In this document: piece by piece, positions 6,626 through 49,366 of the stretch
How the letters are laid out: each line of letters begins with the position of its first letter
Position numbering within the stretch: the first letter of the stretch is position 1
Source: Patescibacteria group bacterium
GTDB lineage: Bacteria > Patescibacteriota > Minisyncoccia > Phycocordibacterales > 21-14-all-36-13
Length of the DNA: 51,831 bases
Reading direction: 5' to 3'
Assembly: GCA_018899555.1 (NCBI GenBank)
Contig: JAHIHZ010000011.1
Location: forward strand, 1-51,831
Notes under the pieces: generated by a model
The model's database searches: none
What the model was told of the DNA's origin: nothing
What the model saw: only the letters and a program-made list of their open reading frames with translations
Position numbers and translations under genes: made by a program

Positions 6626-7583
6626 CGCATTACACAATGATTTCAATATATGTCAATAGTGTATGCACACCACTGGGCAAGCAGTTTTCCTGCACCCTAG
6701 CGGTTTCCATAGGTTTTCGCTTTTTTCCCTCTCTTCCTAATCTCATCACGAAGTCTAACAATTTTATTAAAACCCCTGTCTGTAAGATGTTCTTTTTTAG
6801 ACATCATTAAAACAATTTTTTTAAAAATTTTATAAACTTCCGCTTTTTTGGCTTGTAATGGATTTTTATCAAGAAAAGGGAAAAGTTTCGTTGTTAAATC
6901 TTTTAAATTATTTATCTTATATTTTGAATGAGGAAACCATCCATATCTATCATAAGACAGATCATAAATTCTTCCACACCCAATTGTTATAAGAATTCTC
7001 TCTAAAATTTTTTGATCATCGGCACGAAGTTCTATTTCAAATTCCGGTCGAATTTCAAATCTTCTTTTAAGAGTTTTATGTTTCCCTATGCTTATAGAAA
7101 AAGATCCCTCTCCGTCTATAAAACCAGAAACATAATTTGGATTTAATTTTTTCCTATGAATTTGTTCCTTCCCAATTGGTTTTTTTAACTTCTTGGTACT
7201 ATGAACTCTGCTGACTTCTTGCATAACATTTAAAAAAGATTGCTCTTTTATATACCTCGATGTTATCACACACCGAGGATTATGCAAGATCTCCTGTGGT
7301 AACTATATAGACCATTTGTTTTCATCTCGATATCACTACACGCAATATGTTTACTTTGACACAGTAGGCTTCTCCATATACTCGCAGGATGACCTACATA
7401 TTGCGCCACAGACTGATATTCAAGCTAAAAACTGCTAATTTCTCCCTTCACTGAATTTCCTCACGGAAAACAGCTGAGATTTCGCTTCAAAACACTGTGA
7501 CTTATTTTGGCCTGATTTCCAAAAACTTTTTTTAAAAAAGAAGTTGGGCACAGACTGGCTTATATAATCGCACAGCGACCCGA
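6626..7583 (-). mobile_element. 958-nt intron-like insertion in 16S between E. coli C1395 and A1396, carrying a LAGLIDADG gene; ribozyme class not assignable by eye
   Basis: Exon sequence GCCTTGTAC stops at 7584 and resumes as ATACCGCCCGTCAACTC at 6625. Joining the two restores the universal CCUUGUACA(C/U)ACCGCCCGUC. The insertion ends in G. The group I core motif seen in the other introns is absent. Confidence 0.7.
6697..7287 (-). CDS. LAGLIDADG homing endonuclease (single-motif type)
   Basis: Contains YVSGFIDGEGSFSISI. About 190 aa, located inside the rRNA insertion. Confidence 0.8.
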   Translation of the reverse strand: MHNPRCVITSRYIKEQSFLNVMQEVSRVHSTKKLKKPIGKEQIHRKKLNPNYVSGFIDGEGSFSISIGKHKTLKRRFEIRPEFEIELRADDQKILERILITIGCGRIYDLSYDRYGWFPHSKYKINNLKDLTTKLFPFLDKNPLQAKKAEVYKIFKKIVLMMSKKEHLTDRGFNKIVRLRDEIRKRGKKAKTYGNR

Positions 7584-7615
7584 GTACAAGGCTCGAGAAC
7601 GTATTCACCGCAGTA

Positions 7616-7651
<36 letters not shown>

Positions 7652-7804
7652 GGGTCGAGTTGCAGACCCCAATCCGAACTAGGACCGATTTTTAGGATTG
7701 GCTCAGGATTGCTCCGTCGCGACCTATTGTATCGGCCATTGTATTACGTGTGTAGCCCAGGGCATCAAAGGGACATGCTGACCTGGCGTCATCCTCTCCT
7801 TCCT

Positions 7805-7885
7805 CCCCTCCCTAAAAGAATTTTCAAACAAGAAGTTCGGCTTCTCAAGAGGAAGCCAAACTTCGAAAATTCACTTAGGGAGGGG
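7805..7885 (-). other. expanded 16S helix (about E. coli 1160-1175 region)
   Basis: CCCCTCCCTAAG ... CTTAGGGAGGGG encloses a second hairpin (GTTTGGCTTCCTCTTGAGAAGCCGAAC). E. coli has only about 15 nt at this position. Confidence 0.6.
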
Positions 7886-8235
7886 CAGTCTCGTCTGAAA
7901 TTTATAACAGACAACAAGGGTTGCGTTCGTTTCCCTACTTAAAGGAACAGCTCAAGCCACGAACTGACGACGGCCATGCATCACCTGCCTATCCGTTAAG
8001 ATTTTCTGTTTCTAGAAAAACATAAGATAGGTTTCAAGCCCTGGTGAGGTTCTTCGGTTAGTATCGAATTAAACCACATAATCCACCGCTTGTGCGAGCC
8101 CCCGTCTATTTCTTTGAGTTTTAACCTTGCGATCGTACTACCCAGGCGGTTCTCTTAATGCGTTAGCTTCGCCTCTCAGAGGGTCGATACTCCGAAAAGC
8201 TAGAGAACAACGTTTACGGCGTGGACTACAGGGGT

Positions 8236-8795
8236 CACTTTTGTTACGAAGTAACAAAAAAATTAAAAATGTAAAAATCAAAATGAAAAATTACAATTTA
8301 AAATTCAAAAGTTACCGGATACAACATTTCTGTGTATCTCTCTATGTCGCCATAGAGGTCGGACTATATCTTCACCCGGCACTTTCTGAAAGTGCTGGGG
8401 TTTGGCATGTAGTCTCTGAGGAGCCTTGCGTGCTATAAAATGCGGGCAACAGCACCTTTAACACACAAGTTTCCTGCTGATTGTCTGCATCGGTTTGAGA
8501 TTGTTACTATAATATATCAATAGTACTCGAACATTCGCAGAGTTTCCAGCATATAGCCAAATTACAATCTACTGTTGCCAGTAGAAGAGACACTGTTCGC
8601 ATTCTCTCACCTACTTGAGTGAGCATTTTCTTTTTTAAAACATATGCAGGAGATGAAATAAAAATCAAGGAGTCGCATAGGAAAATGAAACTGTTTGAGT
8701 CCTGCAAGGCAGGATGAGTTTTTCATTTTCCGTCATAAGACGATTATGATTTTTTTCATCGAAACATCGTTTTGAAAAAGAAGATGCGAACGTTT
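8236..8795 (-). mobile_element. group I intron in the 16S 790 loop (between U793 and A794), no ORF
   Basis: Splicing restores GGAUUAGAU|ACCCCUGUAGUCC. Core elements CCTCAGAGACTAC (P7 5' side) and GAAGATATAGTCCGAC (J8/7-P7', compare Tetrahymena AAGAUAUAGUCGGACC) are present at 8345-8425. The last intron nt is G and the last 5' exon nt is U. Confidence 0.8.
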
Positions 8796-9111
8796 ATCTA
8801 ATCCCTTTCGCTCCCCACGCTTTCGTGTTTCAGTGTCAGGAAATGTGCTAGTTTATTGCCTTCGCTTTTGGTGTTCCCCATAATATCAACGGATTTCACC
8901 CCTACACTATGAGTTCCATAAACCCCTCACACCCTCTAGTTGTACCGTTTCTTTTGCAGTTCTTCGGTTGAGCCGAATGTTTTAACAAAAGACTAATACA
9001 ACCACCTACACACCCTTTACGCCCAATGATTCCGGATAACGCTTGGGGCCTCTGTATTACCGCTCCTGCTGGCACAGAGTTAGGAGCCCCTTATTCATGA
9101 TCTGATGTCAA

Positions 9112-9230
9112 TCGCTCCGCGATTCCCACGCGGATAAACGCAGACAACAATGCGGATAGACGCGGATAAAAAATATCTGCGAAAATCTGCAAAAATATCT
9201 GCGAAAATCTGCGAAGAAATCGCAAAGCGA
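9112..9230 (-). repeat. V3-region expansion of 16S built from ATCTGCG/ATCCGCG-type repeats
   Basis: About 120 nt lie between ...GATTGAAGAAG and TTGACATCAGATCATG... The segment consists of tcgcagattttcgcagatatttttgcagattttcgcagat... and tatccgcgtctatccgc... Confidence 0.65.
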
Positions 9231-9466
9231 CTTCTTCAATCATAAAAGATCTTTACGTCCCTAAGGACTTCATCAATCACGCGATGTCGCTCCGTCAGGC
9301 TTTCGCCCATTGCGGAAGATTCTCGACTGCTGCCACCCGTAGGTGTATGGACCGTGTCGCAGTTCCACCGGTGGAGGTCAGGCTCTCACCTCTCCTAGAC
9401 GTCATAGCCTTGGTAAGCTTTTACCTTACCAACTAGCTGATATCCCGCAGGCCGATCCCAAAGCGC

Positions 9467-9518
9467 CCAGCACATATTTTGATTTTTGAACAATTTCAAA
9501 AATCAAAATATGTGCTGG
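9467..9518 (-). repeat. 52-nt near-perfect hairpin inside 16S V2
   Basis: CCAGCACATATTTTGATTTTTGAA-loop-TTCAAAAATCAAAATATGTGCTGG. Confidence 0.7.
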
Positions 9519-9532
9519 ACTTTACTCAACAC

Positions 9533-9825
9533 TTTTTTTATTTTACAAGAGATTCTTTAATTCGCTTTTTTATATATGTTCGAGCATTGCCATAATGTTT
9601 TAATCCTTTCTCCCGAGCTCTTGCATCTTCTTCGGATCTATATGATTCGCAATATACCAAAATCCACGGTATTCCAAATTTAGTTGATTGATTTATTCCA
9701 TCATTATGATGTTTAAGTCTCTCGGATAAATTTGTTGTAAATCCGAAATATAAATCTTTCGTTTTTTTGCTTTGAATCACATACACCGTATAAAGTTTCA
9801 TGAAGCTAATTATAAAATAAAAAAA
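9533..9825 (-). mobile_element. 293-nt insertion in a 16S V2 hairpin loop consisting almost only of a GIY-YIG ORF
   Basis: Bounded by an 8-bp inverted repeat, CTCAACAC (9525-9532) and GTGTTGAG (9826-9833). No group I core is visible. Confidence 0.65.
9538..9801 (-). CDS. GIY-YIG nuclease domain protein (87 aa)
   Basis: The N-terminus YTVYVIQSKKTKDLYFGFTTNLSERLKHHN is the GIY...YIG/R/E pattern of GIY-YIG domains. Confidence 0.8.
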   Translation of the reverse strand: MKLYTVYVIQSKKTKDLYFGFTTNLSERLKHHNDGINQSTKFGIPWILVYCESYRSEEDARAREKGLKHYGNARTYIKKRIKESLVK

Positions 9826-9925
9826 GTGTTGAGACTATCAGGTATTATCCCGCCTTTCGACGGATTATCCCTGACTTTGGGGGTCGTTCCTACGTGTTAC
9901 TACCTCGTTTGCCATGTTTTCTCGT

Positions 9926-10064
9926 CTACGGCGAGAACGCTGATGTTCGCAGATGGGGCTCGCTTGCGCTCGCCTTCGCAGATGTTCGCTGATATTTAAA
10001 AATTATATCTGCGTTAATCTGCGTTTTTTATCTGCGTTAATCTGCGGTCTTGTCGTAGACAAGA
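9926..10064 (-). repeat. 139-nt module expanding 16S helix 6 (V1); near-identical copy inside 23S (49169-49366)
   Basis: CTACGGCGAGAACGCTGATGTTCGCAGATGGGGCTCGCTTGCGCTCGCCTTCGCAGATGTTCGCTGATATTTAAAAATTATATCTGCGTTAATCTGCG... ...GGTCTTGTCGTAGACAAGA is shared with the 23S copy. Confidence 0.85.
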
Positions 10065-10137
10065 TACATTCGACTTGCATGCCTAATCCACATCGCCAGC
10101 GTTCATCCTGAGCTAGAATCAAACTCTAACTTAAAAA

Positions 10138-43924: not shown

Positions 43925-44752
43925 CACATATTTCTTAATCTTTTTAATTGATTTAGAATTTTACCCCCTATTTCTAGGAGTGTAGACTATATCTTCATCC
44001 GTCAGCTTCTGGCTGATTAGGATGTTGGCGTATTACAAGTATAAATCTGTCCCAATATATGTCGGAACTTTTCAATGTTATACAAGTCTGTTTGTTCAAA
44101 TTAAATTGAACAAAACAAGTCGTTACGGGGTCAAATCTAATAATTTTAGCAATTCATTTCTGTCTCTTTTTTTCTTAGTGACATAATTTTCTTTTTGTAT
44201 TTTAAGAATTAAATCTACAAGCATTATAAGTTCTTTCTTTTTCAAAAGATTTATTGATTTTTGTAAAATTTTACAAGAATTATATAATGCCTTAGCTTGT
44301 ATTTTTTTGAATTTTATATAAGGAATAAGATTTTTCAAAATTTTTTCTATTTTTTTAAATCCATTTATTCTCAATTCAGTCATCCCGTCTTTTCTTTTTG
44401 AAATATAACCTATATTTAATTCCTTTCTTATCCAATACAAAGGTTCATCATGGCGAGTGTCTTGATAAAAACACATCGTCGCCATAAAACGAATTCCTCT
44501 TTTGTTGTCGCTTCTTTTCTTTATCTGGAGCATTAAACTTCCATCTCCATCAAGAAAACCCGCGATATATGCTAAATTTATTTTTGATCGACTTCCCACG
44601 GTATTGTCTTAAAAATTATCTGGTCCTCAAGTAATTTTATCATAATTAACGGACCGCGTTAATTATTTTTCCACTGCCAGATATTTTATGAAGATTTCAC
44701 CGTTATTAGCCAAATTGTCATCTCATATTACTATGAGAAGTAGCAATTATTT
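43925..44752 (-). mobile_element. group I intron in the sarcin-ricin loop (between about U2656 and A2657) with LAGLIDADG gene
   Basis: Splicing restores CUAGU|ACGAGAGGACC. P1 is UAGU(A) with UGCUA. The intron ends in G. Core element GAAGATATAGTCTAC at about 43985-44000. Confidence 0.8.
44123..44599 (-). CDS. LAGLIDADG homing endonuclease (single motif, 158 aa)
   Basis: LAYIAGFLDGDGSLML. Its size is typical of homodimeric enzymes of this family. Confidence 0.85.
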   Translation of the reverse strand: MGSRSKINLAYIAGFLDGDGSLMLQIKKRSDNKRGIRFMATMCFYQDTRHDEPLYWIRKELNIGYISKRKDGMTELRINGFKKIEKILKNLIPYIKFKKIQAKALYNSCKILQKSINLLKKKELIMLVDLILKIQKENYVTKKKRDRNELLKLLDLTP

Positions 44753-44815: not shown

Positions 44816-45341
44816 CACTTTTGTTACTTCGTAACAAACGCAGATTCACGCAGATTATACGCGGATTTACGCAGAAGTTACGAGGACAAATCATTTCTGT
44901 TTATCTCTCCGTGTTACCACAGAGTGTCGGACTATACCTTCATCCAGCTGTAGTTTTTGTAAACTACGGCTGGAGACTGACATGTAGTCTCTACGGGGTC
45001 AAGCGCTTTGCTAAATTTAAAATGTAAATATCAAAGTTTAAAATTGTCGCGTCCGCCAAAGGCGGACAATTTAATTCACCACAAATTTTTCAAAGAAAAA
45101 TTTGTTCAACAATTTTGCATTTTGCATTTTGATTTTTCAATTTAGTGTTTCGCAATGCGAAACACGCAAACTTCCCTCGGTATTATCTTTTATTGGTCAA
45201 TAAAAAAGATTTCACCGATATGAGTCAGTTTAATATCAATCACGATTACTCGTGAAAGCCGCCGTGTTTTTCTCTTTTAGCTCTTTTAAACGTTTATGGA
45301 TTCAGAATACTTTGTAATCCGAAATAAATTTCAGATTACAA
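44816..45341 (-). mobile_element. group I intron at about L2593, ORF-less, with repeat modules in peripheral loops
   Basis: 5' exon ...UCAGACCGU|, 3' exon |CGUGAGACAGG, intron ends ...AAAAGUG. The internal guide CACG-GCGG can pair with both exons. Core at 44925-45000. Confidence 0.8.
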
Positions 45342-45350
45342 ACGGTCTGA

Positions 45351-46209
45351 CATTTCTTCCATTATTACTAAATGGTACTGACTATACCTTTTCCAAATTT
45401 TCCACCTTTGGAACTGACGTGTTAGCCCCGACTTTATTATGTCGGAACTCTGCCGATTTAATCGACAAGTCGATACGGGGATTATCAATCTTATATGCCA
45501 TTGCTTTTAGAATAAACGGAGCAACAATTGAGAGAAAATAATTATAATCTTTTCTTCCAATCGCGATTTTCCATTGATTTCTATCTTTTACAATTGTTGG
45601 AGATATTTGATACTTTTTCTTTAAAAAATCAACAATTATTTTTTGATCTTCTAAAGAAAATGAATGCGTGTTCAAAGTTATGTTTCCGTGATTATTTGAA
45701 CCATCATCCATATACCAAACTGCCAACATTCTGTCAGAGAAAATTGAAAGTATTTCTATTGGAAATTTTTTCACTTCATTTTTATAAAAAATTTCATGAA
45801 TGATTCCAAAGTTTTTTAGACTTTTTGTGTGAAAATACCAAGATACTTCGTGTAAATTTCTTTTTTTATTTATGCAAGAAATTTCTTTTGGTTCACAAGA
45901 TACCAAATTTTTTAGTATTTCGTACTTCCACCAGACATACTCTTTTTGTTTCTCTCCGTGATGAACTCGAAAGCGAGCGGTATAAGAAGTTCGTATTCCT
46001 TTCGATCGGCATTCAAGCCGAGCATCACCAAGCAATGACCCTATAATCACATCAAGTTGATGTGATGGAAATGTAGATTGTAATCTTCCCACGATATTAT
46101 CCATTGCATATATTTTAACATACACAATCGGACTTCACCGTTATGAGTCAGTTTACTATTCCTTTTTTATTTTATTCTCGATGAGAATTTGCTGGGCTCA
46201 TGAATCCTT
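45351..46209 (-). mobile_element. group I intron at about L2584 with double-motif LAGLIDADG gene
   Basis: P1 is GCUGGGU (exon) with GCCCAGC (intron). The intron ends ...GAAGAAAUG. Core at 45374-45480. Confidence 0.8.
45382..46125 (-). CDS. LAGLIDADG homing endonuclease (two motifs, 247 aa)
   Basis: [12 protein letters not shown] and [11 protein letters not shown]. Confidence 0.85.
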
Positions 46210-47618: not shown

Positions 47619-48082
47619 CAACTTTGTTACTTTGTAAGAAACGCAACTTATGTTAATTACACATATTCGCGCAAATACAAGGTAAGAACATTTCTGTCTC
47701 ACTCTTTGTGTCGCCACAAAGTTCGGACTATATTTTCTAAATTATTTTTGTGTTTAATTTAGTTTGACTTTTAGTCTCTGAGGATGTTGCGAACTTTTTT
47801 TCTTTTAAAAAGTTCTCAACTTTCCTGCTGATTTTCCGCATCACCTTAAAGATTATTACTGTTTAAAAAAATTAAACGAGTACTCAAGGATACATTGCGG
47901 GTTTCCCAGCATATGGTCAAAATTTAAAGACATTTCACTTAATGTGAAATAGGCAACAACCTTTTTATTACCAAATTATTTATAATCGTCCCAGTCCTTC
48001 TACACTAGAAGTTAGAAACCAGAAACTAGAAAAATAAATTTTCCAGAAATCCAGCGTCTTAGTAATCAGCCTCCAGTGCAAA
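47619..48082 (-). mobile_element. group I intron at L1931, ORF-less
   Basis: Splicing restores CCUAAGGU|AGCGUAAUUCC. Core at 47720-47785. The intron ends ...AAAGUUG. Confidence 0.8.
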
Positions 48083-48096
48083 ACCTTAGGACGATT

Positions 48097-48844
48097 CATA
48101 AACGTTATCACTGCTCTCAAGCAGCTCCTCATGGTCGCCCATGAGATCGGACTATCTCTTCCAAATCCGATTTCTCGGATTAGGTCTAGCGTATAGTCTC
48201 TGAGGATTTTCTGATAAAGAGTTTCTATAATCTTCTATATTATATTTTCTCTTTCTTCCTCTCCCTTCATTCAATTTTTCTCTTAATTTTACTATTTTAG
48301 ACATCCCTTCGTTGTTTAAATGTTCTTTTTTATAAACTATTTCTGTAATTTGTGAAAAAATTGAGAAATTTTTTTTTTACTTGAAGAAAGAAAAGAATAT
48401 TTTTTGAAGAAAGGTATTATCCTCTCTTGAATTGCGTTTGGGTTTGAAATTACATAGTACCAAACTCCATCTTTTCGTTCTTGCAATCTGCCACATTTTA
48501 AATATTGTTTCATTAAAGCAAGAATCGTTTTGTCGCGTTGAGCGACATTTAAAGTCAACACTATTTGCCAACCGAGAGAATGATCTTCGCGTTTTCTTAA
48601 AGAAACATTGAAGCTTCCCTCTCCGTCAACAAACCCTGAAATATAGTTTCCTATATTTTGGGGTATTAATTTAAGCCACGAATAATCTTTATTCATAAGT
48701 TTTATTCGTTACTTTGTCAGAATCTTTCCTGCGGATTGTCTGCACCGTTGCATTGTTACTATCCTTTCGACAAGAATGAGTAGCAAACGGATACACCAGA
48801 GTTTCCCGCATATAGCTAGATTTTTTAACTACAATCGTCACCTT
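48097..48844 (-). mobile_element. group I intron at L1917 (inside helix 69 loop) with disrupted LAGLIDADG gene
   Basis: P1 is AACUAU (exon) with GUAGUU (intron). Splicing restores GGCGAUAACUAU|AAUCGUCC, a helix 69 of the same length as in E. coli with compensatory stem changes. Core at 48145-48215. Confidence 0.85.
48152..48696 (-). pseudogene. LAGLIDADG homing endonuclease gene interrupted by a frameshift in an A10 run
   Basis: The 119-aa ORF (48337-48696) contains YISGFVDGEGSFNV. After the T10 run at 48369-48378 the homologous C-terminus (..KKEHLNNEGMSKIVKLREKLNEGRGRKRKY..) continues in another frame. Compare the 16S enzyme ..KKEHLTDRGFNKIVRLRDEIRKRGKK... Confidence 0.7.
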
Positions 48845-49040: not shown

Positions 49041-49168
49041 TGACCCCCCGTGTTTAACCTTCTGGCATTGGTCAGGCGTCACCCCCTATACATCCTCTTA
49101 CGAGTTCGCAGGGAGCTGTGTTTTTGGTAAACAGTCGCCAGGGGTACTTTCGCTGCGTCCTTTCTCGC

Positions 49169-49366
49169 CTACGGCGAGAACGCTGATGTTCGCAGATGGG
49201 GCTCGCTTGCGCTCGCCTTCGCAAATGTTCGCTGATATTTAAAAATTATATCTGCGTTAATCTGCGTTTTTATCTGCGTTAACCCTGTTAAATAATTTTG
49301 CCTTCGGCAAAATTCCTGCAAGGCAGGATTTAACGGGGTGAATCTGCGGTCTTGTCGTAGACAAGA
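49169..49366 (-). repeat. copy of the 16S helix-6 module inside 23S, with a nested 58-nt ACCCTGTTAAAT-type module
   Basis: Collinear with 9926-10064 except for 1 substitution, 1 T indel and the nested insert at 49282-49339. Confidence 0.85.

Follow-up and report, generated by a model that had tools for sequence, protein, structure and literature searches.

How does a 23S ribosomal RNA (rRNA) gene yield a continuous peptidyl-transferase centre when two large inserts leave just nine of its bases between them? The question is raised by contig JAHIHZ010000011.1 of the Patescibacteria group bacterium assembly GCA_018899555.1, which was analyzed over positions 1 to 51,831 (51,831 nucleotides (nt), hereafter the window). 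On its minus strand the order is GAGCUGGGU (to 46210), an 859-nt insert, UCAGACCGU, a 526-nt insert and CGUGAGACAGGUUGGUC (from 44815). The answer that we consider very probable is that each insert is a group I intron of its own, one at position 2584 and one at position 2593 of a single 23S gene (referred to as L2584 and L2593), and that the nine bases between them form a genuine exon that is spliced and ligated. Both introns would leave by two-step guanosine-initiated transesterification, and ligation of the three exon pieces would restore GAGCUGGGU-UCAGACCGU-CGUGAGACAGG in the peptidyl-transferase centre.

The layout of exons and inserts is as follows.

46293-46210, minus strand: 23S exon equal to E. 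coli 2501-2584, by BLAST to the E. coli 23S (L001)
46216-46210, minus strand: GCUGGGU, the last 7 nt of the 2501-2584 exon and the P1 5' strand for the L2584 intron
46209-45351, minus strand: upstream insert, 859 nt, 3' end ...GAAGAAAUG
45350-45342, minus strand: 9-nt micro-exon UCAGACCGU, equal to 23S 2585-2593, with U2585 at 45350
45341-44816, minus strand: downstream insert, 526 nt, first letters UUGUAAUC, final letters AAAAGUG
44815-44753, minus strand: 23S exon equal to E. coli 2594-2656, its CGUG start being the P10 partner of the L2593 intron; U2656 closes this exon and a further intron starts there

Because the flanking BLAST matches stop at 2584 and resume at 2594 (44815-44790 aligns with E. 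coli 2594-2618), exactly nine rRNA positions, 2585-2593, are missing from the two long exons. The Rfam large subunit (LSU) alignment stops at GGGU of the 2501-2584 exon. Standard E. coli numbering is used throughout; the fetched 23S copy runs +3 in the 2501-2618 region, and the offset was fixed with established landmarks (A2451, Ψ2580, U2585, A2602 and Ψ2604/2605). The degenerate 9-mer TYAGAMCGT has a single copy on both strands of the 51.8-kb window, where ~1.0 would be expected by chance, and this sole copy has the correct strand and falls inside the 1394-nt gap, a placement with a chance probability of ~1.4%. The ACCGU of the micro-exon is common to all Patescibacteria relatives. The locus is 99.98-100% identical across three public assembly records, from ENA (ERZ27247124), NCBI (GCA_018899895.1, contig JAHIHC010000005.1) and Logan (SRR9644739), which were matched through the neighboring Fic protein that they encode. 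A 9-nt exon carrying U2585 between two inserts had been proposed in an earlier sequence-only reading of this DNA, and the micro-exon layout is now confirmed by the BLAST exon map, by the sequence and by its recurrence in relatives. The lengths (859 and 526 nt) and end sequences that it gave for the introns hold without change, and the better alternative exon assignment that it had named as its refuter was searched for in the gap at 1-2 mismatches, with none found.

The features that identify the upstream insert as a group I intron are listed first.

46209-45351, minus strand: L2584 group I intron, IA-like with P7.1/P7.2, terminal G at 45351
46209-46198, minus strand: L1 loop AAGGAUUCA followed by UGA (P10)
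46197-46191, minus strand: guide GCCCAGC
46152-46147 (ACUGAC) with 45418-45413 (GUCAGU), minus strand: P3
45383-45380, minus strand: P7 3' strand AGUC

In this intron P1 is formed by GCUGGGU with GCCCAGC, placing U2584·G at the splice site, while P10 joins UCA (2585-2587) to the UGA that immediately precedes the guide; the 3' boundary reads ...AAAUG/UCAGACCGU (here and below, slashes in sequences mark boundaries). P1 with its U·G and the adjacent UGA was present in all L2584 intron-bearing loci retrieved through the protein alone, and RNAalifold placed the P1 U·G in 11/11 relatives lacking an open reading frame (ORF). The alignment of these 11 ORF-less relatives recovered P1, P3, P4, P5, P6, P8 and P9; compensatory changes support 22 of the 43 pairs and fall in P3, P5, P6, P8 and P9. 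P7 (GACU with AGUC) is present and invariant, and went unscored as part of a pseudoknot. The ORF-less relatives are 221-369 nt long and also show the P7.1/P7.2 hairpins that are typical of subgroup IA. Hairpins in the 3' part of the intron had been considered as P4/P5, an assignment rejected on the P7.1/P7.2 of these relatives. Locus L028 has an ORF-less intron of 298 nt that matches the window intron with 88% identity at the 5' end (134 nt) and the 3' end (~145 nt).

The downstream insert has an equivalent set of features.

45341-44816, minus strand: L2593 group I intron, no ORF, terminal G at 44816
45341-45312, minus strand: 14-bp hairpin
45266-45259, minus strand: guide CACG/GCGG, directly 5' of P2
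45254-45241, minus strand: P2
45229-45224 (ACUGAC) with 44981-44976 (GUCAGU), minus strand: P3
44989-44985 (GACUA) with 44934-44930 (UAGUC), minus strand: P7

Here GCGG pairs with CCGU (2590-2593) as P1, including U2593·G, and CACG pairs with CGUG (2594-2597) as P10, giving the 3' boundary ...AAAGUG/CGUGAG. The guide, in the form (CA)CGGCGG beside P2, is kept in nearly all 38 non-identical L2593 introns; a few short forms are without the CACG part and have only GGCGG, and in many relatives a longer P1 of 6 bp forms between GCGGUC and GACCGU. With 12 compact relatives as input, RNAalifold returned P2, P3, P4, P5, P6, P8 and P9, with 26 of the 39 pairs compensatory. The longest ATG ORF in the intron encodes 30 amino acids (aa). 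Rfam had placed P3 at AAUUGUU, which was rejected for the ACUGAC/GUCAGU pairing that covaries in relatives. The sequence-only reading had called both inserts group I introns and had picked out the guide CACG/GCGG; the guide is correct, and both introns stand on their P1 (with a U·G in each), P10, terminal G and covarying core helices.

Relatives of the locus came from two sources: 30 loci from a scan with the endonuclease of the L2584 intron (one genome per species) and 120 more from a metagenome DNA-pattern scan for the L2584 P1 hairpin. Roughly half of the latter are real, the other half being chance matches in unrelated GC-rich DNA, and a scan of viral contigs gave chance matches only. The occupancy of the two sites was distributed as follows.

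Both introns, with 9-nt exon UCAGACCGU or UCAAACCGU: 40 non-identical loci
Both introns, cut by a contig end: 6 non-identical loci
L2584 only: 21 non-identical loci
L2593 only: 2 non-identical loci (L029 and L031)
Neither intron: 1 locus (L032)

Looking for relatives with one, both or neither intron had been suggested together with the original reading, and all four states were found, which is the pattern expected of mobile introns. The two-intron layout is common in Patescibacteria. The micro-exon always equals the sequence of the intronless relatives, and in single-intron loci (L014, L027, L029 and L031) the nine bases are contiguous with the neighboring exon, which settles the exon assignment. 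Four loci from related genomes (L015, L017, L026 and L095) have, after their L2584 intron, UCAGACCGU-UGUAAAACAGGUUGG where others have CGUGAGACAGGUUGG. This variant amounts to three changes (2594, 2597 and 2599) in the normally invariant sequence next to A2602, and the L2593 intron is absent from all four.

The L2584 intron, but not its partner, carries a long gene.

45382-46104, minus strand: homing endonuclease ORF, 723 nt; 240 aa from ATG, or 247 aa from a GTG at 46125
Predicted intronless endonuclease target: GAGCTGGGTTCAGACCGTCGTGAG, also given as GAGCTGGGTTCAGACCGTCGTGAGACAGG

The protein has a full-length match to Pfam PF03161 (LAGLIDADG_2; E=1e-40, 139.9 bits, profile positions 2-167 of 168). 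Looked up by exact sequence from its ATG, it matched no record. The body of the ORF is an insertion in the P6 loop; the frame starts in P5' and continues through P6', P7, P7.1/7.2, P3' and P8 to a UAG stop in J8/7, an overlap of ORF and core of a kind known in cyanobacterial rRNA introns (PMC1995217). The 30 relatives of the endonuclease, at 31-96% identity, are all in metagenome-assembled genomes, most of them labelled Patescibacteria, Parcubacteria or Paceibacterota and some just 'bacterium' or 'uncultured Candidatus Saccharibacteria'. These labels place the window in a bacterium of the Candidate Phyla Radiation, a Paceibacterota-like member of the Patescibacteria. The gene in the window is intact and its product is predicted to cleave the target given above. 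Among the non-identical L2584 introns, 46 of 67 have a long ORF and at least 16 of 67 have lost it. The partner L2593 intron, on the other hand, has no ORF in 35 of 36 loci with both introns. Since the two sites are 9 bp apart, co-conversion is expected, and we infer that the L2584 endonuclease would carry the ORF-less L2593 intron along, so that the pair would spread as a unit. At locus L091 the L2584 intron (497 nt) holds a decayed endonuclease remnant (the LLGDARLE region, ~60 codons), and the neighboring L2593 intron and 9-nt exon are intact. L091 is an intermediate in a cycle of endonuclease gain, decay and loss.

Several points weigh against two introns that splice themselves out and join the micro-exon to its neighbors. 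Splicing, ligation and their order are all deduced from DNA. The P1 of the window's L2593 intron has just 4 bp (6 bp in many relatives) and the P10 of its L2584 intron just 3 bp, so self-splicing without a protein helper is not assured. For P7, invariant sequence precludes a covariation test of the pseudoknot. The Rfam group I model (Intron_gpI, RF00028) scores 48.2 bits on 44907-45169 of the L2593 intron (E=9e-11, local search), below its gathering score of 50, and it gives no match at gathering score for the L2584 intron, because the ORF splits the core. At L028, where the introns are ORF-less, neither reaches the gathering score, which we read as low sensitivity of the model for the L2584 subgroup.

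In a different account the introns are real but not truly autocatalytic: their splicing depends on a protein that holds the short P1 and P10 in place, be it a host factor or the LAGLIDADG_2 protein in the role of maturase. Such dependence is possible but, in our judgment, rather unlikely. It would fit the 4-bp P1 (-5.8 kcal/mol) and 3-bp P10 of the window as well as an endonuclease ORF that is intact and conserved. Against it, the ORF is absent from those 16 or more of the 67 L2584 introns, and several of these (L028, L047, L088 and L102) still have an L2593 neighbor across the same micro-exon. Because ORF-less L2584 introns persist beside L2593 introns in this way, the endonuclease is not needed in cis, though a host factor may be.

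A much less probable account is that the inserts are excised without ligation, leaving a fragmented 23S as after RNase III-like cleavage, or that the gene is a pseudogene, and that the 9-mer is a functionless leftover. Some bacteria do have unligated 23S intervening sequences (PMC11270868). However, a free 9-nt RNA with U2585 could hardly be retained in the catalytic centre; the 9-mer and its splice-site contexts (U before it, G before the next exon, and matching guides) are kept in dozens of species despite divergence inside the introns; and both inserts have full covarying group I cores. Moreover, RNase III-type inserts replace a dispensable hairpin tip, and those in the window instead split invariant single-copy core at 2584/2585 and 2593/2594.

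Finally, we give almost no credence to a single composite insertion, whether twintron or nested element, or to a chimeric assembly, with the 9-mer present by chance, since about one degenerate 9-mer per window is indeed expected but its placement in gap and strand is not (~1.4%), two complete and different group I cores lie one on each side, three separate public assembly records agree, and the contiguous 9-mer of the single-intron relatives L014, L027, L029 and L031 excludes a twintron, a chance match and a chimera alike.

If two group I introns thus flank a real micro-exon, the nine bases must serve both of them. The sequence-only reading had them act as the 3' exon of one intron and the 5' exon of the next, and the P10 and P1 pairings that this role calls for were both identified in the sequence: UCA (2585-2587) would be the P10 partner for the upstream intron, and (GA)CCGU (2588/2590-2593) the P1 partner for the downstream one. 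It had also supposed that so small an exon probably constrains the order of splicing. That step was not demonstrated: because L2584 P10 and L2593 P1 use non-overlapping bases of the micro-exon, the two introns do not compete for them, and base pairing alone sets no order.

A possible source of order lies elsewhere, near the 5' end of the downstream intron. In many L2593 introns a domain of 60-270 nt separates the splice site from the guide, and in it a long hairpin at +1 is followed by conserved ACAAUCUGAAUCC.

45297-45306, minus strand: conserved element UCUGAAUCCA in the L2593 5' domain

Across 32 non-identical L2593 5' domains, no words are better conserved than the 7-mers of this element. 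Its UCUGAAUCC(A) is complementary to (U)GGGU/UCAGA (2580/2581-2589), which spans the ligated L2584 junction, and the element is also complementary over 7-8 bp to the L2584 L1 loop GGAUUCA (46207-46201). Calculated duplex energies are -14.6 kcal/mol for the element with the ligated exon, -5.4 with the micro-exon alone and -11.0 with L1, compared with -5.8 for the P1 duplex of GCGG and micro-exon. In minimum free energy folding, the long element-exon helix appears in the L2584-spliced intermediate only. At loci with A2588 in the exon (L070, L074 and L155) the element is UUUGAAUCC (UUUGA), and at G2588 loci it has UCUGA in 28/28; this covariation is probably a single evolutionary event. Single-sequence shuffle tests of the element-exon complementarity are weak, G·U-tolerant runs of ~7 being expected by chance, so that the case rests on a register conserved across introns together with the one probable covariation event. 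Because the full 9-10 bp helix of the element needs excision of L2584, these predicted pairings suggest that L2584 would be removed first.

The second complementarity, between the element and the L1 loop of the neighboring intron, is at present a hypothesis and a lead only. The L1 loop, AAGGAUUCA or in some relatives AAGUGAUUCA, resembles the ligated junction. GAUUC-type L1 loops occur only where the partner L2593 intron has the element and in no L2584-only locus; these loops probably share one origin. In a permutation test, own partners had a mean of -7.65 kcal/mol versus -6.89 ± 0.33 for permuted ones; 70 of 5000 permutations attained the own-partner mean, with relatedness uncorrected. Counter-examples are L088, L091, L109 and L121, as well as L061, which has an L016-type loop but is without a partner intron. 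The most elaborate version of the idea is that the two introns are a co-evolved, co-mobilised pair that splices cooperatively, the element (UCUGAAUCC) tethering the ribozymes through L1 GGAUUCA and then passing to the ligated exon, in the order L2584 then L2593; we hold this to be improbable. At L007, L010 and L012 the conserved element UGAAUCCU has a further complement in the 5' end of the L2593 intron (first ~10 nt, GGAGGAUUCA or UGAGGGUUCA). The element thus has up to three alternative partners, namely the ligated exon, the neighbor's L1 and its own 5' hairpin strand, and it could act as a conformational switch.

The micro-exon at 2585-2593 has company in the same gene. A second micro-exon of 14 nt, AAUCGUCCUAAGGU (1918-1931), lies at 48083-48096 on the minus strand between introns at 48097-48844 (L1917) and 47619-48082 (L1931), minus strand as well. 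It has two changes relative to E. coli, with the helix 69 pairing kept, and the L1917 intron has a LAGLIDADG_1 ORF at 48337-48696. Another insertion, at 43925-44752 (minus strand), splits the sarcin-ricin loop between U2656 and A2657 (CUAGU/...G/ACGAGAGGACC); it encodes a LAGLIDADG_1 protein (44123-44599) and matches the '2657' site of the survey of Candidate Phyla Radiation (CPR) bacteria discussed below. In total at least 7 such insertions are present in the 23S gene, including L1917, L1931, one at ~L2262 (46885-47289) and L2500 (46294-46644).

By Rfam, the rRNA content of the window consists of a bacterial 16S at 7537-10134 and 23S pieces from 51831 downward, both on the minus strand; several matches to group I introns accompany them. 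The neighbors of the rRNA genes are bacterial (AAA ATPase, Fic protein and thermonuclease), and the G+C content of the window is ~33%. A CGCAGAU-repeat element of ~123 nt, which folds to a long hairpin, is found at 49162-49283 (a 23S expansion) and 9918-10040 (near the 16S 5' end), the copies being 97.6% identical; its reverse complement, AUCUGCG, fills the 3' tail of the L2593 intron (44840-44890). A small mobile or repetitive element is one possibility. A match to a group II intron (D1-D4) at 7165-7254 falls outside the Rfam 16S match, ~280 nt past its 3' limit. The CPR survey (PMC11270868) has group II-like insertions at position 1400 of the 16S, and the true 16S 3' end of the window may be mis-assigned.

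How much of this is new? L2593 is a classic intron site, that of I-CreI, with an intron family in chloroplasts and cyanobacteria. A literature search with partial access gave no report of L2584 and L2593 occupied together. The pair itself is undescribed in the literature found; small exons between group I introns are already known and the mechanism is not new. The sequence-only reading had called such small exons very rare, and this is overstated given the published examples, the frequency of the layout in Patescibacteria and the second micro-exon in the same gene.

One close comparison is the CPR survey (Tsurumaki et al. 2024, PMC11270868), which concerns the same organisms and the same phenomenon as the window. 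In that work 82% of CPR 23S genes had insertions, about half of them group I-like; LAGLIDADG genes were common, and the sites include 1917, 1931, 1952, 2593, 2604 and 2657. According to Brown et al. 2015, in the summary given by PMC11270868, insertions in CPR rRNA 'are removed from their transcripts'. The survey defined an insertion as a gap of at least 100 bp versus E. coli, and its main text mentions 2584/2585 nowhere and 'exon' in a reference title only, so the architecture of two introns and a 9-nt exon is undescribed there (PMC11270868). If gaps against E. coli were the criterion, the locus would be scored as one ~1.4 kb insertion and nine bases of the catalytic centre would be lost, including U2585. 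Models that are aware of micro-exons are needed to annotate the 23S genes of CPR bacteria and to reconstruct the mature rRNA. The locus also offers a compact natural system of ~1.5 kb with many variants for studying how two ribozymes share a 9-nt substrate and whether an ORF-less intron hitch-hikes on its neighbor's endonuclease. If the cross-intron pairing is true, we know of no other described group I pair that coordinates splicing by RNA-RNA contacts.

The arrangement of Synechococcus sp. C9, whose 23S has group I introns at L1917, L1931 and L2593 with an implied 14-nt exon (Haugen et al. 2007, PMC1995217), resembles the window in being a bacterial 23S with several LAGLIDADG-encoding group I introns, ORFs that run into the core, and an L2593 intron. 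Both also hold the L1917 and L1931 pair around a 14-nt exon. Synechococcus C9 has no L2584 intron, however, and hence no 9-nt exon, and its L2593 intron has its own endonuclease gene, whereas in the window that intron is ORF-less and the neighbor carries the gene. At the L2584 site, a group IA1 intron (mL2584) is known from Cryptococcus mitochondrial LSU rRNA (PMC5808193); it shares the insertion site and an IA-type structure with the window intron, and the comparison covers the site and the IA-like P7.1/P7.2.

In Coxiella, two group I introns of the 23S are separated by a 34-bp exon (2007, cited in PMC11270868), one of them at the L1951 site tabulated in PMC1995217. Coxiella is like the window organism a reduced-genome bacterium with two close 23S group I introns, and the title of the 2007 paper indicates that self-splicing was demonstrated there by experiment, whereas splicing in the window is predicted from sequence. 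Its exon, at 34 bp, is longer than the 9 of the window, and the intron sites are others. The partner site in Coxiella is L1917.

Smaller exons still are found in mitochondria, where 'mini-exons' are said to 'occur regularly' (PMC10352661). The extreme is a 1-nt exon between two group IB introns in placozoan mitochondrial cox1 (Osigus et al. 2017, PMC5436844), for which RNA sequencing showed both half-spliced intermediates, so that either removal order is used (PMC5436844). It is like the window in having an exon, even smaller, flanked by two independent group I introns, and differs in belonging to a mitochondrial protein-coding gene, not to the catalytic centre of a bacterial rRNA. A single nucleotide, moreover, is unable alone to supply P1 or P10, whereas the nine of the window supply both.

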